Source: Thermodesulfobacteriota bacterium (GTDB taxonomy: Bacteria; Desulfobacterota_D; UBA1144; Nemesobacterales; JAJCZQ01). From it: 64,000 nucleotides of DNA. Positions 15,156 through 61,931 of the stretch are shown one piece after another (position 1 is the first letter of the stretch; every line of letters begins with the position of its first letter). The notes beneath the pieces were generated by a model, which saw only the letters and a list, made by a program, of their open reading frames with translations, searched no databases and was not told the DNA's origin. The position numbers and the translations under genes are program-made. The DNA is taken from the NCBI GenBank assembly GCA_965203965.1, contig CBDBDR010000017.1, positions 832,001 to 896,000 of the forward strand, in the 5' to 3' direction.

Positions 15156-16175
15156 CTACATTGACCTTCCAACTGCTCCTGCAACGGATACAGCTTTCTT
15201 CATAAGATCATCAAAAGTCTTGGGCTTTAAAGATTGTCCTCCATCACTTGCTGCTGTTTCAGGACTGTTATGCACCTCAATAGCAAACCCATCGGCACCC
15301 GCAGCAATAGCAGCAAGGGTTACCGGAGTTACGTATTGCCAATAGCCCGTCCCGTGGCTTGGATCAGCAAACACTGGCAGGTGCGTTTTTTCCTTCAGCA
15401 CGGGTATGGCATTGAGATCAAAAGTGTTTCTCGTGGCAGTTTCAAAAGTTCTTATTCCTCTTTCACACAGCATCACGTTGGGATTTCCCTCGGATAGAAT
15501 GTATTCGGCACACATCAGAAACTCACTGATAGTGGTTGACATCCCTCTTTTTAAAAGAACGGGCTTTCTTGATCTTCCAACTAATTTCAGAAGCGAATAG
15601 TTTTGAGAATTTCTGGCACCTATCTGAAAAACATCTGCGTATTCCTCAAGTAATTCCAGGTCATTTGGGTCCATCAGTTCCGTAACGACTGGTAAGCCAG
15701 TTATTTCCCTTGCCTTTGCAAGGATCTTCAAACCATCCTTGCCCAGCCCCTGAAAGGAATATGGAGAAGTTCTGGGCTTAAACGCCCCACCCCTTAGCAT
15801 TGTTGCCCCTGACTTTTTAACACTCTCCGCAATCGTCAATAGTTGCTCTTCACTCTCAACCGAACATGGTCCCGCTATAACTGATATATTTTCACTTCCT
15901 ACTTCAACGCCGTTAATATTGATCCTGGACGTCTCGTTTACGATCTCTTTACTTGCAAGTTTGTAGGGTTGAACAATAGGAACAACCTTTTCCACGCCTT
16001 TTAGTTGTTTTAAGCTCTCCGCATGATGAGGCTTCCCTCTGTCATCACCGACGACACCGATCACGGTTCTTAGAATCCCTTCTATAGGATGAGGCGTGTA
16101 CCCAAGCTTTTCAATATGTTCCTTAACATTGTCAATCTCTTCTCTGCTTGCGTTATTTTTCATTACTACTATCAT
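15156..16175 (-). CDS. aroF: DAHP synthase type I-beta with N-terminal regulatory domain
   Basis: [44 protein letters not shown]. Confidence 0.95.
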
Positions 16176-16341
16176 TATTTATCTCCCTGCTTATGGCTGA
16201 TGGCTGAAGAATTGCGTGAATCGTTTATTACTATCACATTGCAAACACTAATGTCAATTTACTCTTGCCATGTCCTTGTATGTGTTTACCAAGACCTTCA
16301 TTCTGTTCAACGGATAAATACTCTAAACTCAAAAACTGCAC

Positions 16342-16370
16342 TTGACATAAAATTATTTGGTTGTTATAAA
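16342..16370 (+). promoter_or_regulatory. Sigma70-type promoter of lipoprotein 1
   Basis: TTGACA-17 nt-TATAAA with TG extension, followed by GGAGG RBS before ATG 16410; duplicated at 17805. Confidence 0.75.
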
Positions 16371-16409
16371 TTAGTAGCAAGATAGTGAATTTAAAGGAGG
16401 TAGTATAAG

Positions 16410-17228
16410 ATGTTAAATTCTTACAAAAAATTGTTTGTTATATTGGCAGTATTGGTTGCTCCATTGATGTTTATCGCAGCATGCGACGATAGTGCTCCAC
16501 CCCGTCCCATGGATGATACCCCCGCTCCTCCGGATCCGGATCCCCCATCTGAGGATACAAGCTTGGGAAATCCCATAGAAATCTTATTTCCAGGTGCTGC
16601 AGCTTCATTTGCTAGTTTAGCGGATGAAGATGAAGCCGCATTAGCGCCCATAGTAGCGGGTACTGGAATTACTGTTGAGACACTCGCGGCGTTCGATAGT
16701 GAATTATCGGATGCGATTTTAGACCTGGATGACACTCAACTTGGTACTTTATTTAATAATATTCAGACGGTGGCTGATGATGATACATCAGCTATAACTG
16801 AGGAGGTCACTATGATACAAGAGGTTATAAATGGCGGATTGAACGATCTTCTTGTATTTGGGGAAACTGATGAAGACTTCGATTTCATAGGAACTGGCGC
16901 CGCCAATAACGATGATATAGTTGCGATTATTGATTCGTTAGAGATAGTGAACGAACCAGATAGCAGTAGTGTAGAATCTATAAGTTTTACAGCCCCCTGC
17001 GATGTTACTGCAATTTCATTGCCAGAAAATGTATTAGACCCGGCAGCAGGTGCAACTGCTGAAGTTACTCTTGATGGTGTAATTGTCGCTCCAGCCAATG
17101 AACAATATTTATTCACGCTCGCGGCTGCTGGTATGCCGACAACGGCCAGCGTCAGCGTAACGGCTGAAGATGGTGTGACGATGCGTACTTTAACAATTAC
17201 AACTGCAGCTGCCTCAGACTGTGAATAA
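16410..17228 (+). CDS. Acidic lipoprotein 1 with cadherin-like C-terminus (paralog family)
   Basis: Lipobox FIAA-C25, Pro/Asp linker, C-terminal VTAEDG..RTLTIT strand, Cys pair; strong RBS, promoter and terminator. Confidence 0.85.
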   Translation: MLNSYKKLFVILAVLVAPLMFIAACDDSAPPRPMDDTPAPPDPDPPSEDTSLGNPIEILFPGAAASFASLADEDEAALAPIVAGTGITVETLAAFDSELSDAILDLDDTQLGTLFNNIQTVADDDTSAITEEVTMIQEVINGGLNDLLVFGETDEDFDFIGTGAANNDDIVAIIDSLEIVNEPDSSSVESISFTAPCDVTAISLPENVLDPAAGATAEVTLDGVIVAPANEQYLFTLAAAGMPTTASVSVTAEDGVTMRTLTITTAAASDCE

Positions 17229-17255
17229 CCTAGCAACAACGGCTTAAAACAACTT

Positions 17256-17292
17256 GTAGGGAATGCACAGGTTTGCATTCCCTACTTTTTTT
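17256..17292 (+). terminator. Intrinsic terminator after lipoprotein 1
   Basis: GTAGGGAATGCA/TGCATTCCCTAC 12-bp stem followed by T7. Confidence 0.9.
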
Positions 17293-17309
17293 ATCTCTGA
17301 ACTTTAAGA

Positions 17310-17442
17310 AAGGTTAGTCGGCTTGTGTTGCTGAGGATAACACCACAGCTTCAGACGCTTCTAGAGATGCAGATCTGAATTCCCTGGAAATTGACGGTCT
17401 AACTCCCGGTAATGAAATAACGAAGAAACGAATTGATCCAAA
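17310..17442 (+). pseudogene. Decayed duplicate of the 5' part of lipoprotein 3
   Basis: 17318-17442 matches 18944-19086 with an 18-bp gap; AAGGTTAG at 17310 matches 18860; start codon and signal peptide are missing. Confidence 0.88.
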
Positions 17443-17671
17443 TTTTTCATAAAGACTTATTGCACTATAATTATCCAGTCTAACCTCAAGGATCGCATGG
17501 TTGGCACCTTTGTTAATAAAATACTCCAGCGTGTGGCAGACCAACTTCCGACCAATCCCTTTATTTCTAAACCTACCATCCACGGCTATTTTTAGTATGT
17601 GTATCTCGTCATAGATAAAATACGACAGGCAATATCCGATCAGTTTTCTATATTTATTCTCACAACCAATA
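17436..17671 (-). pseudogene. Internal duplicate fragment of rimI
   Basis: 236 bp matching 20358-20593 with 5 mismatches by manual comparison; lacks both gene ends. Confidence 0.92.
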
Positions 17672-17804
17672 GGGAGTTACACCACTCTACTTCTTTTCCT
17701 TATCATATCTCACCTCTCAATGATCTTCATTCTGTTCAACGGACAAAAATTTGGGATTGTTAGTTGGTCATTACCTATAAACACTCTAAACTCAAAAATT
17801 GCAC

Positions 17805-17833
17805 TTGACATAAAATTATTTGGTTGTTATAAA
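17805..17833 (+). promoter_or_regulatory. Sigma70-type promoter of lipoprotein 2
   Basis: Identical to 16342-16370. Confidence 0.75.
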
Positions 17834-17872
17834 TTAGCAGCAAGATAGTGAATTTAGAGGAGGTAGTATAAG

Positions 17873-18724
17873 ATGTTAAATTCTTACAAAAAATTGTTTG
17901 TTGTATTGGCAGTATTGATTGCTCCATTGATGTTTATCGCAGCATGCGACGATAGTGCTCCACCCCGTCCCATGGATGATACCCCCGCTCCTCCGGATCC
18001 GGATCCCCCATCTGAGGATGCAAGATTTCAAAGTGCTGCAGATACCACAGAGGCAATATTTCCAGGTATTGTAGCTTCGTTTATTGGTTTAGAAAATGCA
18101 GCAGATAGCGCATTAGAGCCCATAGTAGCGAATGTTCCAATTGGTGTTGCCACACTCAGGACTCTCAATAGGGAACTTGTGGATGAACTTTTAGACCTGG
18201 ATAACACTCAACTTGGTACTTTATTTAATAATATTCAGACGGTGGTTGATGGTTCATCAGCTGTAGCTGACGATGTAAGTATGATACAAGAAGCTATAAA
18301 TGAGGGAATTAACAATCTTCTTGTATTTGGGGAAGTTGATGCCCCAGTTCCTTTCATCGGAACTGCCGCTCCCAATAACGATGCTATAGTTGCGCTTGTT
18401 GATTCGTTAGAAATAGTGTACGCATCAACAAGCAGCAGTATAGAATCTATAAGTTTTACAGCCCCTTGCGGTGTTACTGCAGTTGAATACCCAGAAGATG
18501 CACTAGGTACGAGAGACGACGGTGCAAGTGTTGAAGTTACAGTAGTTAGTAGTGGTAGTCCTGATGACATGACAGTTATTGAGCCGGCAAATGAACAATA
18601 TACGTTCCAGCTCGAGGCTGGTATGATGATAATGCTTACTGCCTCCGTAACGGCTGAAGATGGTGAGACGACGGAGGATTTCACTTTAACAGTTGAAACC
18701 CCAACCGTCGCAGCATGTAGTTAA
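17873..18724 (+). CDS. Acidic lipoprotein 2 (paralog of 16410..17228)
   Basis: First 49 codons differ from lipoprotein 1 at only 2 nt; shares TQLGTLFNNIQTV, ESISFTAPC, PANEQY, VTAEDG. Confidence 0.85.
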   Translation: MLNSYKKLFVVLAVLIAPLMFIAACDDSAPPRPMDDTPAPPDPDPPSEDARFQSAADTTEAIFPGIVASFIGLENAADSALEPIVANVPIGVATLRTLNRELVDELLDLDNTQLGTLFNNIQTVVDGSSAVADDVSMIQEAINEGINNLLVFGEVDAPVPFIGTAAPNNDAIVALVDSLEIVYASTSSSIESISFTAPCGVTAVEYPEDALGTRDDGASVEVTVVSSGSPDDMTVIEPANEQYTFQLEAGMMIMLTASVTAEDGETTEDFTLTVETPTVAACS

Positions 18725-18763
18725 TTAGTCCTAAAACAAAAAACTCTCAATCACATGTAGTTA

Positions 18764-18801
18764 GTAGGGAATGCGCAGGTTTGCATTCCCTACTTTTTTT
18801 T
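18764..18801 (+). terminator. Intrinsic terminator after lipoprotein 2
   Basis: GTAGGGAATGC/GCATTCCCTAC stem plus T8; near-identical to 17256-17292. Confidence 0.9.
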
Positions 18802-18880: not shown

Positions 18881-20161
18881 ATGTTGAATTTTTATGAAAA
18901 ATCACTCTTGACTGCGATCGTATTTGCATCTGTCATCTTCATCTCAGCTTGTGTTGCTGAGGATAGCATCACAACAAACACTATTAGAACAATTTCAGAC
19001 GCTTCTAGAGATGCAGATCTGAATTCCCTGGAAATTGATGGTCTAACTTCCAGTAATGAAATAACCAAGAAACGAATTGAACCAAACTTCAACAGCAATA
19101 TAATGCAATACACAGTTGACCTTCCCGGCAGCACTGAGACTATCACGGTTTTAGCAGAGACATCAAGTAATAGAGCCTCTATTGAATTTATGGAAAGGAT
19201 TGAAACTCTGCAGGATGCGGAAACAGGCATCCCGGGATTTCAAATATCTGCTCCCGACGAAGGTGGAATGGTAGAAATTGAAGTAGTCGTAACGGCTGCA
19301 GATAGAAGAACACAAAAAACTTACACTTTGGATATTACACGACATAATGGCAGCAGTACTGAGCATAGATCAAGTCTTCCAAAAGCAACAATATTAACGC
19401 AAGAAGTTCAAGACGAATTAGTTGCGATCACCAGCAGAGATGATGTCTCTGCCGCACTGATTAGTTTTGGAGTAATTAATCCTGATACGATAGAAGTTCT
19501 CCAAATGGGCGGAGACGAGACAGAAGATCTGATTTTATCACTTAGGGAGACTCAACTTGATTCAGTATTCTCTTTTCTGTCTGATGGAAATCTGCCAGGG
19601 GTTGACCAAGAAATTATAGACACTGCCGCAAGAGCATTAGAAGAACTAAATGATTCTCTGAATAACCTGTTTGTATTTACAAATGATGCTGACCGAATTT
19701 TCTTCGGAACTGACGACGACGGAGATAGTGCTGATACCACGATTATTAGCGCGCTCTACGCAGGTGCAATGAAAGATAGTAATAATGGAAATTTCTCCTT
19801 TACAGCCTTGTGCGAAGCTCGTATGATTGAAATTCCAGAAGATGCGGATGCATTACAACCGGCAAATCCGGGTGCTTCACTTCAGGTTACTATTCCCGAT
19901 GGTGATGGTGATGGTAATCCAGACCTTATCACTGCAACAAATGGGGAATACACATTCCCGCTCGCGGATGCTGGAAGTCCACTAGAGATAACGATCACCA
20001 TAACGGCTGAAGATGATTCGGCAATGAGCAGCCGAGTTTTAACAGTTACCACTCCAACACAAGAGGTTTGCGATGCTCAAACTCCCTTTTTGTTTGCGCC
20101 TACTACCCCTTCCCCTGATGAAATCAATCTTCCTGAAATAGATACATTCCCCGATGAATAG
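18881..20161 (+). CDS. Acidic lipoprotein 3 with extra N-terminal cadherin-like beta-sandwich domain
   Basis: Lipobox FISA-C; DADLNSL..PNF....QYTV...VVVTAAD..TQKTYTLDITR; the C-terminal part echoes lipoproteins 1/2 (ETQLD, LNNLFVF, FSFTALC, NGEYTF, ITAEDD). Confidence 0.8.
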   Translation: MLNFYEKSLLTAIVFASVIFISACVAEDSITTNTIRTISDASRDADLNSLEIDGLTSSNEITKKRIEPNFNSNIMQYTVDLPGSTETITVLAETSSNRASIEFMERIETLQDAETGIPGFQISAPDEGGMVEIEVVVTAADRRTQKTYTLDITRHNGSSTEHRSSLPKATILTQEVQDELVAITSRDDVSAALISFGVINPDTIEVLQMGGDETEDLILSLRETQLDSVFSFLSDGNLPGVDQEIIDTAARALEELNDSLNNLFVFTNDADRIFFGTDDDGDSADTTIISALYAGAMKDSNNGNFSFTALCEARMIEIPEDADALQPANPGASLQVTIPDGDGDGNPDLITATNGEYTFPLADAGSPLEITITITAEDDSAMSSRVLTVTTPTQEVCDAQTPFLFAPTTPSPDEINLPEIDTFPDE

Positions 20162-20262
20162 ATCCAAACCTGCTCCCTCCTGGAATAGATCGATTAGTTC
20201 CTCTAATAACTTCCAAGAGAATATTTTAATTGTCTCTCGTATAAAGGACGAGAAGTTTTTAT

Positions 20263-20739
20263 TTACCTTGCAGGGTAATTTTGTAGATCAAGTAACATCT
20301 CAAGAGCATCGTCGCCGGTCTTACTATAATAATTTCTCCTGACCCTCAAACTTTCAAATCCAAGTTTTTCATAAAGACTTATTGCACTATAATTATCCAG
20401 TCTAACCTCAAGGATCGCATGGTTGGCACCTTTGTTAATAAAATACTCCAGCGTGTGGCAGACCAACTTCCGACCAATCCCTTTATTTCTAAACCTACCA
20501 TCCACGGCTATTTTTAGTATGTGTATCTCGTCATAGACAAAATACGACAGGCAATATCCGATCAGTTCTCCATATTCATTCTCACAACCAATACTGTAAG
20601 AATTTTTATTTTTAAATAACGTTTCAAAAACCGTGCGAGGCCACGGAGATACAAAAGAAACGTCCTCAATTTTTAGTATTCCATCCAGATATTCTTCCGT
20701 CAGCTCTAGAATACAGTCCTTAGTTGTAATATCAGCCAT
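20263..20739 (-). CDS. rimI: Ribosomal protein S18 alanine N-acetyltransferase
   Basis: F.SPW, DEIHILKIAV..FRNKGIG, LEVR..N..AI.LY.KLGF...RRNYY...DAL. Confidence 0.92.
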   Translation of the reverse strand: MADITTKDCILELTEEYLDGILKIEDVSFVSPWPRTVFETLFKNKNSYSIGCENEYGELIGYCLSYFVYDEIHILKIAVDGRFRNKGIGRKLVCHTLEYFINKGANHAILEVRLDNYSAISLYEKLGFESLRVRRNYYSKTGDDALEMLLDLQNYPAR

Positions 20740-60500: not shown

Positions 60501-61931
60501 TCAAACAGAGTTTATCAGCTTTTTGATCGCCTCGTTCACCAACTTGGGATTTGCCTTGCCTCCGGTCAGCTTCATAACCTGTCCAACAAAAAATCCTATC
60601 AGTTTATTTTCACCCGACCTGTATCTACTGACCTCTTCAGGATTGTCTTTGAGTATTTTGTAAACTATGGCTTCAATCTCGGAGGCATCGGAAATCTGCT
60701 CAATCCCTCTTTGTTTTATTATATCCCTTGCGGATTTCTTCTCTGCGATCATTATGGGAAAAATTTCCTTGGCAATTTTCCTGTTAATTATCCTGTCTCT
60801 TGTAAGGTTTAAAAGCTCTGCAAGCATCTGAGCAGTAACGGGAAACTGTTCAATATCATCATCAATATCCACCTCTCTAAGCATTTCCGTTATTATCCAA
60901 TTACACAGTTCTTTTGGGTCATCAAAACTCTCAAGACATTTTTCAAAGTAGTTTGCAATATCCTTGTTTGAGACAAGTAGCTTTGCGTTATCATCAGAGA
61001 GTTGATAGCTTGATAAAAACCTTTTCAGTTTACGATCGGGAAGTTCGGGCAAAGAGTTTCTCAATTCCTCAACCCATTCTTTTTCAAGCACCAAAGGAGG
61101 CAGGTCAGGATCGGGGAAATATCTGTAATCATGCGCATCCTCTTTTGTTCTCATTGAAAAAGTCCTGACCTTGTTAGAGTCAAAAAGTCTTGTCTCTTGT
61201 ATTACCCGTTGCCCGTTCTTAACTAATTCAGTTTGACGCTGTGTCTCATGGTCAATGGCTTTTTGAATAAACCTAAATGAGTTGAGGTTTTTTATCTCTA
61301 CTTTTGTTCCGAGTTTATCTGAGCCTTTTTCTTTTATTGATATATTTGCATCACATCTCAGATTTCCCCGTTCCATATTCCCGTCACATACGTCAACGTA
61401 TTTCAAAATAGATCTTAGTTGTTTTACGTATGAAACCGCCTCGTCCGAATTTTGAATATCAGGCTCGGTTACTATTTCTACCAGTGGCATCCCCGACCTG
61501 TTCAGATCTACAAAGCTGTAAGTATCCGAGTCCTCATGTATTAATTTCCCGGCATCTTCCTCCATATGTATTCTTTTAATGCGGATTTTCTTTGTTTGCC
61601 CTTTTACATCCACCCTTAGAAACCCGTCCGTTGAAAATGGCTCTACATGCTGTGATATCTGGTATCCCTTTGGCAAATCGGGATAAAAATAGTTCTTTCT
61701 TGCAAAACTCGAACGTAGCTGAACCTTACAGTTAGTTGCCAGTGCAGCCTTGACGGCAAACTCCAGTGCTTTGGTATTTAGAACCGGTAAAACCCCGGGC
61801 ATTCCGAGGCAAATGGGATTTACCTGTGAGTTAGGAGGTGAACCGAATCTCGTTGAAGAGGATGAAAAAATTTTGGATTCTGTTTTAAGTTGTGCGTGAA
61901 CTTCAAGTCCAATTACTGCTTCGTATTTCAT
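60501..61931 (-). CDS. gatB: Asp/Glu-tRNA amidotransferase subunit B
   Basis: VIGLEVHAQL, RKNYFYPDLPKGYQISQ, HMEEDAGK, LRCDANIS, DYRYFPDPDL. Confidence 0.98.
   Translation of the reverse strand: MKYEAVIGLEVHAQLKTESKIFSSSSTRFGSPPNSQVNPICLGMPGVLPVLNTKALEFAVKAALATNCKVQLRSSFARKNYFYPDLPKGYQISQHVEPFSTDGFLRVDVKGQTKKIRIKRIHMEEDAGKLIHEDSDTYSFVDLNRSGMPLVEIVTEPDIQNSDEAVSYVKQLRSILKYVDVCDGNMERGNLRCDANISIKEKGSDKLGTKVEIKNLNSFRFIQKAIDHETQRQTELVKNGQRVIQETRLFDSNKVRTFSMRTKEDAHDYRYFPDPDLPPLVLEKEWVEELRNSLPELPDRKLKRFLSSYQLSDDNAKLLVSNKDIANYFEKCLESFDDPKELCNWIITEMLREVDIDDDIEQFPVTAQMLAELLNLTRDRIINRKIAKEIFPIMIAEKKSARDIIKQRGIEQISDASEIEAIVYKILKDNPEEVSRYRSGENKLIGFFVGQVMKLTGGKANPKLVNEAIKKLINSV

Follow-up and report, generated by a model that had tools for sequence, protein, structure and literature searches.

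Pathogens and Wolbachia are known to carry hypervariable envelope proteins whose alleles recombine. In Borrelia (OspC and Vls) and Mycoplasma (Vlp and Vsp), the genes stand in tandem families that recombine, and a conserved promoter and signal peptide are followed by a variable mature part. The Wolbachia surface protein WSP, an eight-strand beta-barrel with 515 alleles, is described in the accessible part of one source as a combination of conserved blocks and hypervariable regions, with segment shuffling by recombination and diversifying selection (PMC2843615). In the accessible full-text literature, we found no description of such proteins in sponge-associated bacteria.

Here we analyzed a locus in a window of 64,000 nucleotides, the whole stretch of DNA examined, from a Thermodesulfobacteriota bacterium. 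Two tandem lipoprotein genes, A and B, share nearly identical flanks around strongly divergent mature parts. At a probability of about 0.65, we read the locus as a strain-polymorphic lipoprotein family that was diversified by recombination among old alleles and is probably under diversifying selection.

Locus anatomy and predicted proteins

Genes A and B, each with its own upstream block and intrinsic terminator, are followed by gene C and by an intact rimI gene (Table 1). A sequence-only reading had described a duplicated pair with a dead rimI fragment; the pair stood, and the description was incomplete, as gene C is a third, longer paralog and the dead block also holds a 5' piece of it, C', whose region matches protein C at 64% over 64 aa in tblastn. 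C' and rimI' are joined at an imperfect 10-nt overlap, where repeat families D3 and D5 meet, and rimI' lies 2.9 kb from rimI. The near-identity reported for the promoter core and the terminator was confirmed (92 of 96 nt, and 97% for the hairpin), and the 25 nt behind the hairpin are 100% identical between the copies. The rimI fragment is near-identical as well, although the earlier count of 5 differences in 236 nt became 6 in 237. Promoter hexamers were assigned by eye; the promoter scanner, which demands T at the last -10 position, omits them. High expression of A and B would be a reading of these consensus-like signals only. Antisense ORFs of 171 and 149 aa within A and B were rejected as shadow frames, and since by our calculation they share their third codon positions with the sense frames, they cannot explain low dS.

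Table 1. Features of the lipoprotein locus, in positions of the window
Feature	Position	Strand	Description
Upstream block, copy A	16293..16409	+	repeats at 17722-17872; core 92/96 nt; copy B with 34-nt insertion
Promoter and RBS, copy A (by eye)	-35 TTGACA 16342-16347; -10 TATAAA 16365-16370; AAGGAGG 16394-16400		17-nt spacer
Gene A	16410..17228	+	ORF, 272 aa
Intrinsic terminator, gene A	17256..17292	+	12-bp stem, then T run; 97% identical to gene B terminator
C' (dead fragment, gene C 5' part)	17318..17445	+	118/132 nt identical to 18940-19089; one 18-nt gap
rimI' (dead internal rimI fragment)	17436..17672	-	231/237 nt identical to 20358-20594
Upstream block, copy B	17722..17872	+	same promoter and RBS; by eye -35 17805-17810, -10 17828-17833
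Gene B	17873..18724	+	ORF, 283 aa; architecture as in A
Intrinsic terminator, gene B	18763..18801	+	13-bp stem, then T run
Gene C, third paralog, longer	18881..20161	+	426 aa; PF12733 above cut-off
rimI, intact, source of rimI'	20263..20739	-	TIGR01575 111.2 bits vs cut-off 86.4

Bacterial lipoproteins carry a basic n-region, a hydrophobic h-region and a lipobox of the pattern [LVI][ASTVI][GAS]C. The N-termini of A and B read MLNSYKK-LFV(I/V)LAVL(V/I)APLMF-IAAC, with the lipobox IAAC ending in Cys25, and protein C has ISAC with Cys24. Lgt (PF01790, 191.9 bits) and LspA (PF01252, 127.1 bits) are encoded in the same genome, and judging from the sequence A, B and C are exported, lipid-anchored lipoproteins. 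In E. coli, lipoproteins with Asp at position +2, next to the lipid-modified Cys, are retained in the inner membrane, a rule that is not universal across phyla; A and B both have Asp there, which by this rule would mean inner-membrane retention, and their surface exposure is putative. The lipid-modified cysteine of A is followed by a proline-rich acidic stalk (residues 26-49) and then by a helical domain (~55-150), which is variable; residues ~190-265 form a predicted Ig/cadherin-like beta sandwich, which has Cys197 and Cys271. Protein B has its cysteines at positions 25, 199 and 282, and two conserved cysteines probably close the sandwich by a disulfide. Protein A is strongly acidic, with a pI of ~4.05 and 0.8% K+R. 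Two structure models were obtained, the first with a pLDDT of 54 and the second, from AF2, with 64 overall, 75-87 in the helical part and 53-72 for the strands at 190-265. Foldseek retrieved Ig-like domains at a best E value of 8e-3 (PDB), with no PDB match at E <= 0.001, and the wide VIA-align search gave a best Z of 6.1 and otherwise values below 5, within the stated background of the tool, so that no solved structure pointed to a function.

Gene C encodes an extra N-terminal cadherin-like domain. In the C-terminal half of the protein, identity with A and B is 33%, and the match to B covers residues 89-282. The extra domain of C passes the PF12733 cut-off of 24.2 bits (46.8 bits, E = 4e-12), and A and B stay below it at 17.0 and 21.9 bits. 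A profile of the family matches multi-domain PF12733 repeat proteins, down to E = 3e-29, and no functional homologs of the A/B family were found in the profile, NCBIfam and ESM Atlas searches. NCBIfam gave nothing meaningful, ESM Atlas no usable match for the helical domain and a short-protein search, with 30-74 aa covered, no match. Protein B had no match in any of 40 further genomes from the family or order of this bacterium. The two nearest loci retrieved with the adjacent DAHP synthase, at 88-89% identity, come from MAGs labelled as Spirochaetia and Thermodesulfobacteriota; the genes next to aroF differ there, and no lipoprotein of this kind is among them. A, B and C are best read as a lineage-restricted family in a sponge-associated bacterium with a genome of ~2 Mb, whose members are all very acidic and combine the proline-rich stalk with the variable helical domain and the sandwich.

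Divergence between copies A and B

The sequence-only reading had compared 50 codons by hand (16587-16736 against 18059-18208), and our alignment returned exactly its 23 identical, 2 synonymous and 25 non-synonymous codons, with all four codon pairs that it quoted (GCT/ATT, GGT/AAT, ACT/GTT and GGA/CCA) and with the 2 nt differences that it gave for the first 49 codons (3 mismatches over nucleotides 1-150 of the CDS). Across the whole mature part, 105 codons are identical, 18 differ by synonymous changes only and 98 are non-synonymous, so the hand-picked stretch is the most extreme part. The reported bias to codon positions 1 and 2 finds no support in the mature part overall, in which 62, 62 and 48 differences fall on the three positions (chi-square p = 0.32). 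These counts do not differ from uniform, and much of the pattern could therefore come from weak constraint, the protein being acidic and loosely packed.

The identity of A and B at the nucleotide level is 96-98% in the flanks against 74.7% in the body, that is, the mature part, and divergence steps sharply at both ends of the body. The 5' block has 263 matches and 9 mismatches compared with 495 and 168 in the mature part (Fisher p = 3e-18), and 33 synonymous sites hold no synonymous difference, for which P = 2e-4 at the mature-part rate. While dS is 0 over codons 1-49, it reaches 0.27 in the mature part, about ten times the flank divergence. The claim that the copies differ almost only by amino-acid changes, with the flanks as a neutral clock, is overstated, as the clock flanks stand at only ~0.02-0.03. 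The alignment of the mature parts has 45 gap columns, all in frame, and an identical run of 42 nt lies inside the body, a length that 1 of 10000 shuffles reached.

The full codon alignment that had been proposed as a check gave an omega for A against B of 1.26 (NG86) or 1.53 (ML) in the mature part, not significantly above 1 (likelihood ratio test p = 0.066), with a bootstrap range of 0.86-1.91 and 11% of the replicates at or below 1. Of the case for strong diversifying selection, as first proposed, the unusually frequent non-synonymous change is supported, and an omega significantly above 1 is not. Codons 55-100 reached an omega of 3.1 (p = 0.025), in a stretch picked after looking. The differences are clustered within codons, with 105, 69, 38 and 9 codons carrying 0, 1, 2 and 3 differences, and neutral simulations kept the reading frame open in 161 of 5000 cases (3.2%). 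Variability showed no helical periodicity, as the power at 100 degrees was reached by 71-1894 of 2000 shuffles for four column ranges, and invariant columns were not enriched in hydrophobic residues (p = 0.21).

Other alleles and sponge metagenomes

Four further full-length alleles are present in public data, namely P0002, P0004, P0059 and P0061, the first two of them with a precomputed PF12733 annotation. All six alleles including A and B are intact, with every indel in frame, and 119 of 288 columns are invariant, both cysteines included. Based on protein alignments of these six alleles, the nearest neighbour switches by segment. P0002 agrees with A at 127 of 139 positions in columns 51-195 and at 49 of 83 afterwards, and with P0004 at 73 of 136 and then at 86 of 86 (Fisher p = 2e-17). 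The most variable segment of A is identical to P0002, which comes from another sample and has a different tail, at 55 of 56 positions, and the last 18 columns of B are those of P0002 and P0004. A PHI-type statistic was 0.226 against a permuted mean of 0.330, and 0 of 5000 permutations were as low. These results bear out the suggestion that a gene-conversion or recombination process is involved, and they largely agree with what the sequence-only reading had named as a finding against itself, an old allele recombined in, since an A-like allele with a different tail exists elsewhere. Because I22 and E48 are common to A and B, with V and D at these positions in the four other alleles, the 5' ends of A and B appear to have been homogenised within this genome. 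P0059 and P0061 each lie on a contig of 12714 nt, presumably one shared contig. Searches of the metagenome contigs for foreign-allele DNA with peptide patterns, and with a degenerate DNA pattern for the ESISFTAPC block, returned nothing.

In the runs dated 2010 (X5) and 2024 (X3), 0-1 other letters occur in the pieces listed for A, for B and for the junction of C' with rimI', and pieces of both copies are letter-identical in the two years. X2 and X4 each have one contig, from another strain, in which a B-like end is followed by 16 other letters and by the sequence downstream of A. By our own reading, the 16 letters translate as ASGC-stop, the tail of P0059 and P0061, and a 9-nt deletion lies where P0004, P0059 and P0061 are without 3 residues. 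One contig in each of the two runs joins 16292 to 17671, with sides of only 30 and 59 nt, which suggests strains without copy A. Gene C strain variants are present in X2 and X4 too. Among the best-supported 40 of 105 strain differences, 24 of 26 changed codons are non-synonymous, with P = 0.036 against a neutral expectation of 0.763. The earlier view of a hypervariable locus for an exported, lipid-anchored protein is supported. Depth differences over the A/B region in X2 and X4 are contig depths and were kept out of the evidence.

Competing explanations and comparison with known systems

The sharply bounded variable region and the reverse-transcriptase ORFs in the genome assembly could be taken to mean that a diversity-generating retroelement (DGR) or a similar device rewrites the mature part by targeted hypermutation. 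However, all 3 matches of the PF00078 genome search lie on a single 38-kb contig, and these reverse transcriptases are repeated, partly decayed, RVT_1 only and LINE-like or eukaryotic in appearance, so that we take them for host DNA. Neither a template repeat nor a cassette or further copy was found by blastn and tblastn with mature A and B in the 99.5% complete genome, which holds only A, B and C, and a search for silent cassettes with A, B, C and the four foreign alleles at E values up to 10 gave no further match beyond chance level. The mismatches between A and B are of all types (AG 48, CT 38, AC 33, CG 23, GT 15 and AT 15), 76 of 172 being without adenine and 104 without thymine, and the divergence spans ~700 nt with frequent indels. 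As pieces of both genes were also identical in 2010 and 2024, DGR-type diversification, which had been raised earlier, is scarcely credible. The main proposal of the sequence-only reading, a recent duplicate that diverged by adaptive point mutations alone, draws on the 25 against 2 codons of the chosen stretch, and it is contradicted by the step in dS, as the body lies about tenfold above co-duplicated dead DNA. The strong mosaic signal and the allele classes that match the variable segment of A and the tail of B in other samples speak against it as well, making it very improbable.

If A and B were instead paralogs that duplicated long ago, at dS ~0.27, repeated intragenomic gene conversion would homogenise the promoter, signal peptide, stalk and terminator and also the dead rimI piece, and selection would keep the bodies apart. 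The shared I22 and E48, the sharp steps at both ends and the 42-nt tract agree with this explanation, and a shared contig of P0059 and P0061 would fit a tandem pair elsewhere. We nevertheless consider it unlikely, as the dead rimI', after persisting for such a time in a genome of 2 Mb, would have to match rimI at 97.5% even now, and the greater divergence of C' (118 of 132 nt) would need patchy conversion. Moreover, the X2 and X4 contigs with their short sides suggest strains without A, and the segment that A shares with P0002 from a different sample requires in any case that strains exchange DNA. Under relaxed constraint, the proteins, being acidic and loosely folded or else partly redundant since the duplication, would accept nearly any substitution away from a few structural positions. 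Old alleles drifting near neutrality, with recombination and no positive selection, would account for an omega not differing from 1, the even codon positions, the low pLDDT of the first model and the lack of functional homologs. It is distinctly unlikely given six full-length alleles with in-frame indels only, the invariant columns with both cysteines, the clustering of differences within codons, the excess of non-synonymous strain differences among the best 40 of 105 and the small share of neutral simulations that keep the frame open.

Under recombination among old alleles, our preferred reading, the population would keep several old, strongly diverged alleles, whose segments would be reshuffled as homologous recombination acts on the conserved blocks, namely the promoter, signal peptide and stalk; the internal 42-nt tract; SSSVESISFTAPC; VTAEDG...TLTV; and the terminator. 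This strain would hold two allele classes in tandem. A duplicative recombination would have copied the promoter, gene, terminator, gene C start and part of rimI, and a deletion of ~1.27 kb at short microhomology would then have removed most of the extra C and rimI. In the flanks, the near-identity would stem from a recent common origin or from conversion; in the body, the 25% divergence would be that of old alleles, accumulated at a dN/dS of at least 1, probably through diversifying or frequency-dependent selection by phages or the host. It is a quite unlikely idea that the variable helical head may be a strain-identity determinant seen by polymorphic recognition molecules of the sponge or by strain-specific phages, with frequency-dependent selection maintaining its polymorphism. 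The tandem classes would then be a bacterial "permanent heterozygosity" that broadens or conceals what can be recognised; if true, the locus would offer a compact, sequence-defined way to study how animals that lack adaptive immunity distinguish the strains of their symbionts. The locus is small and clear in its anatomy, and its allele classes are already visible in public sponge metagenomes. It could be used to mark strains, and it could be a candidate for recognition between symbiont and host or between symbiont and phage. As a methodological lesson, an excess of amino-acid changes beside near-identical flanks can be due to recombination that moves old alleles, without any rapid change following the duplication.

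Compared with known systems, the locus resembles DGR targets in the sharply bounded variable part of an exported, Ig-like or lectin-like protein, and differs from them as it has no bacterial-type reverse transcriptase, template repeat or adenine pattern, carries indels and is stable over time. It is linked to PF12733 proteins by the N-terminal domain of C, which passes the cut-off, and by the C-terminal domain of A, B and C, which as a profile retrieves proteins with 5-11 PF12733 repeats; A and B, in contrast, have a single putative domain of this type, below the cut-off, in place of a long array, and before it an orphan helical domain without a relative outside the lineage. With the Borrelia and Mycoplasma families, it shares a conserved promoter and signal peptide, a variable mature part, tandem genes and recombination. 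Unlike them, it has no silent cassette array in a whole-genome search, no phase-variable repeats in a repeat search and no detected homology, and the identity of the A and B pieces in 2010 and 2024 suggests polymorphism within the population rather than a programmed switch. With respect to WSP, as far as the accessible part of its description goes, a beta-barrel outer-membrane protein stands against a lipoprotein that combines a helical domain with a predicted Ig/cadherin-like sandwich, with no sequence relation, and 515 alleles stand against six, two allele classes lying here in tandem beside a third paralog (PMC2843615). Both belong to the envelope of bacteria that inhabit invertebrates, and they have in common the alternation of conserved blocks with hypervariable stretches, recombining alleles and signs of diversifying selection without host adaptive immunity (PMC2843615).

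Layout of the locus and its products

Genes A and B, two tandem variable lipoprotein genes, and their longer paralog C are enclosed by the genes for DAHP synthase and rimI. Each of the genes A and B carries a promoter close to consensus (TTGACA-17-TATAAA, by visual reading), an AAGGAGG ribosome-binding site and a terminator hairpin of 12-13 bp; the promoter scanner requires T at the last position, so that the TATAAA promoter is absent from its list. The two dead fragments between the genes, C' and rimI', overlap by about 10 nt with imperfect homology, which would fit a deletion of about 1.27 kb (the equivalent of 19090-20357) in a formerly longer duplicate. The 89-aa ORF across them is chimeric and unlikely to have a function. 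The 49 nt following rimI' may be native upstream sequence of single-copy strains, because contigs of two public sponge metagenome runs, X2 and X4, go straight from 16292 to 17671. The antisense frames inside A and B share their third codon positions with the sense frame and were therefore taken for shadow ORFs of an acidic gene poor in Leu and Ser codons. Farther out, meaB-like GTPase and methylmalonyl-CoA mutase genes come after rimI in the window, whereas in the closest relatives' loci found via DAHP synthase (L007, L008) that gene is adjoined by mnmG and a gene for a thioredoxin-domain protein of about 692 aa; gene order around the locus is thus not conserved at the family level. The weak Lgt-family match may be a dead lgt fragment.

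Coordinates of the locus and of other features (C17 is the window's contig; C' and rimI' are dead copies)
Feature	Position	Strand	Remark
DAHP synthase gene	15156-16175	minus	NF006421, 495 bits
Gene A	16410-17228	plus	272-aa ORF
42-nt run identical in A and B	16732-16773		within the body
Antisense frame inside A	16763-17278	minus	171 aa
89-aa ORF	17314-17583	minus	begins within rimI', continues through antisense of C'
C' (5' part of gene C)	17318-17445		118/132 nt match plus 18-nt gap; between A terminator and B promoter
rimI' (internal rimI piece)	17436-17672		231/237 nt match; between A terminator and B promoter
49 nt between rimI' and B upstream block	17673-17721		no match upstream of A
Insertion in B upstream block relative to A	17743-17776		34 nt
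Gene B	17873-18724	plus	283-aa ORF
Antisense frame inside B	18235-18684	minus	149 aa
Gene C	18881-20161	plus	426-aa ORF
rimI	20263-20739	minus	TIGR01575, 111 bits
Weak Lgt-family match	60587-60769 (C17:892587-892769)		18.4 bits, below cut-off; two internal TGA stops
Intact lgt	C17:222521-223234

All three leaders are basic, then hydrophobic, and close with a lipobox, which is IAAC for A and B and ISAC for C; Lgt and LspA are encoded in the genome. In A and B the leader is followed by a 24-residue stalk in which proline and aspartate abound, then by roughly 100 helical residues (pLDDT 75-87 in the second AF2 model), and lastly by a beta sandwich that spans some 80 residues and carries two conserved cysteines. 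The mature proteins are acidic (pI about 4), Lys+Arg making up only 0.8-1.9%. They may be exposed on the outer surface; A and B both carry Asp at +2 after the lipidated cysteine, which in E. coli leads to inner-membrane retention and would place them there if that rule applied. The sandwich scores 17.0 (A) and 21.9 bits (B) against PF12733, below the Pfam cut-off of 24.2, and the extra N-terminal, cadherin-like domain of C exceeds it with 46.8 bits. A family profile run against 1.84 billion representatives matched 53 proteins at E <= 0.001. Four reached E <= 1e-30, these being A and C plus two foreign-allele fragments; the remainder are long proteins aligned only via sandwich positions, and the four of them scanned hold 5-11 PF12733 repeats each. 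Neither this nor the other family and look-alike searches found a relative of the helical domain outside the lineage, fold searches gave background-level matches only, and a homolog was absent from the 40 related genomes examined.

Divergence of A and B and the foreign alleles

The sequence-only reading held that A and B diverge almost only by amino-acid changes. Its counts were reproduced exactly: between 16587-16736 and 18059-18208, 23 codons are identical, 2 differ synonymously and 25 non-synonymously, its four quoted codon pairs are all found, and 2 nt differ within the first 49 codons. Over the 221 aligned codons of the mature part (105 identical, 18 synonymous-only, 98 non-synonymous), NG86 gave dS 0.267, dN 0.335 and omega 1.26 (bootstrap 95% range 0.86-1.91), and a pairwise ML codon model gave omega 1.53 (LRT against 1, p = 0.066). 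Omega was 3.1 in codons 55-100, a stretch picked after looking (p = 0.025), and codon positions 1, 2 and 3 carry 62, 62 and 48 differences (chi-square p = 0.32). The scope for amino-acid change is therefore unusually wide, yet synonymous sites have clearly changed too, and the body departs from the proposed neutral clock: rimI', at about 2.5% divergence, predicts a mature-part dS of about 0.02-0.03, whereas 0.27 was found. All 33 synonymous sites of the first 49 codons are unchanged (P = 2e-4 at the mature-part rate), and the step is abrupt, 263 matches and 9 mismatches giving way to 495 and 168 (Fisher p = 3e-18). Selection on point mutations is unable to raise dS ten-fold; either body and flanks differ in history or mutation was locally raised. 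The 42-nt identical run, reached by 1 of 10000 shuffles, is plausible as an exchange anchor. The earlier observation stood, and its interpretation was supported in part only.

Among 5.8 billion proteins, 4 of 4292 candidates matched at E <= 0.001, two of them the window's own, and another search gave 7; with cluster members, four further full-length alleles of 271-275 aa were obtained (P0002, P0004, P0059 and P0061). Where variation is greatest (A residues 50-105), A agrees with P0002 at 55 of 56 residues and with B at 22 of 56. P0002 and P0004 are identical from the SSSVESISFTAPC block onward (86/86), as opposed to 73/136 before it (p = 2e-17), and the last 18 alignment columns of B are those of both. 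For P0059, the nearest neighbour switches several times between one end and the other. With 82 informative columns, the statistic of a PHI-type test was 0.226; permuted data had a mean of 0.330 (sd 0.014), and 0 of 5000 permutations came as low. In these protein alignments the alleles are mosaics, and the different histories of body and flanks are directly visible. At residues 22 and 48, A equals B and all four foreign alleles differ, so the 5' ends were homogenised within the genome. Other alleles of this kind occur at the locus in X2 and X4. There, one contig per run leads from the end of a B-like gene across 16 other letters, which by our reading would encode the ASGC-stop tail of P0059 and P0061, into A's downstream sequence; these runs also show a 9-nt deletion where P0004, P0059 and P0061 lack three residues. 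The contigs joining 16292 to 17671, one per run with sides of only 30 and 59 nt, hint at a locus without copy A.

Selection, mutation and the order of events

Neutral decay of A and B is unlikely, given that all six alleles are intact, no indel among them breaks the frame, 119 of the 288 columns do not vary (both cysteines included), differences cluster within codons (105, 69, 38 and 9 codons with 0, 1, 2 and 3 differences), and the frame stayed open in only 161 of 5000 random-substitution replicates. Codon counts in other runs used the listed 40 of 105 strain differences; non-synonymous and synonymous changes numbered 10 and 1 in A, 1 and 0 in B, and 13 and 1 in C. This share of 24 in 26 listed changed codons (P = 0.036 where 0.763 is the neutral share) would fit diversifying selection that acts on some of the positions, with phage, host recognition or grazing as the conceivable agent. 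The C variant in X2 and X4 differs by 39 letters over 1108 nt; 13 of the 14 listed changed codons in C are non-synonymous, every one in codons 203-282.

Local or targeted hypermutation of the mature part was not supported. Across the whole genome (99.5% complete), neither mature part has another copy, a template or a cassette, and the A/B mismatch spectrum has no adenine specificity. The genome's only matches to the reverse-transcriptase family PF00078 are three ORFs on the 38-kb contig C1, repeated, partly decayed, with RVT_1 alone and a eukaryotic-LINE-like look; C1 is probably host DNA binned with the bacterial genome. Moreover, A, B and the scar are stable across samples. Sponge metagenomes of several studies contain the stretch, and at low depths (2-5) the listed contig pieces of run X5 (2010) show 0 and 0 other letters in A (16576-16741, 16805-17013), 0 and 0 in B (17919-18123, 18116-18315) and 1 at the C'/rimI' junction (17298-17638), and 16 of 17 aligned contigs of X3 (2024) are at least 99% alike to the window. 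Both copies and the scar are unchanged between these samples, whose strain may be the same as the window's.

At odds of about 3 to 1, we favour the order in which the duplication was recent and the body was then exchanged with an allele of another strain. The less favoured order is an older duplication with flanks converted later; a dead rimI piece would probably not have lasted over a dS of 0.27, the dead C' beside it was not homogenised to the same extent, and the variable segment of A recurs nearly unchanged in a foreign allele. In the proposed mechanism, this sponge-associated bacterium would keep old allele classes of an exported lipoprotein in its population and reshuffle their segments, with conserved blocks as the sites of homologous recombination. 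In the window's strain, a duplicative event would have set two classes in tandem, and a deletion would have shortened the C and rimI sequence copied along with them.

Similar systems elsewhere

The variable lipoproteins of Borrelia and Mycoplasma evolve in a similar mode, although A and B are not members of those protein families. Cassette-based switching and DGRs differ in that their defining features are missing at A/B. Among the results listed, our full-text literature search found no pertinent description of such loci in sponge symbionts. The Wolbachia surface protein, from a symbiont of invertebrates, is described as having hypervariable regions between conserved blocks, recombination as a main origin of new types, and positive selection (PMC2843615). 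Its mode of evolution matches the A/B locus, but A and B do not belong to its family.
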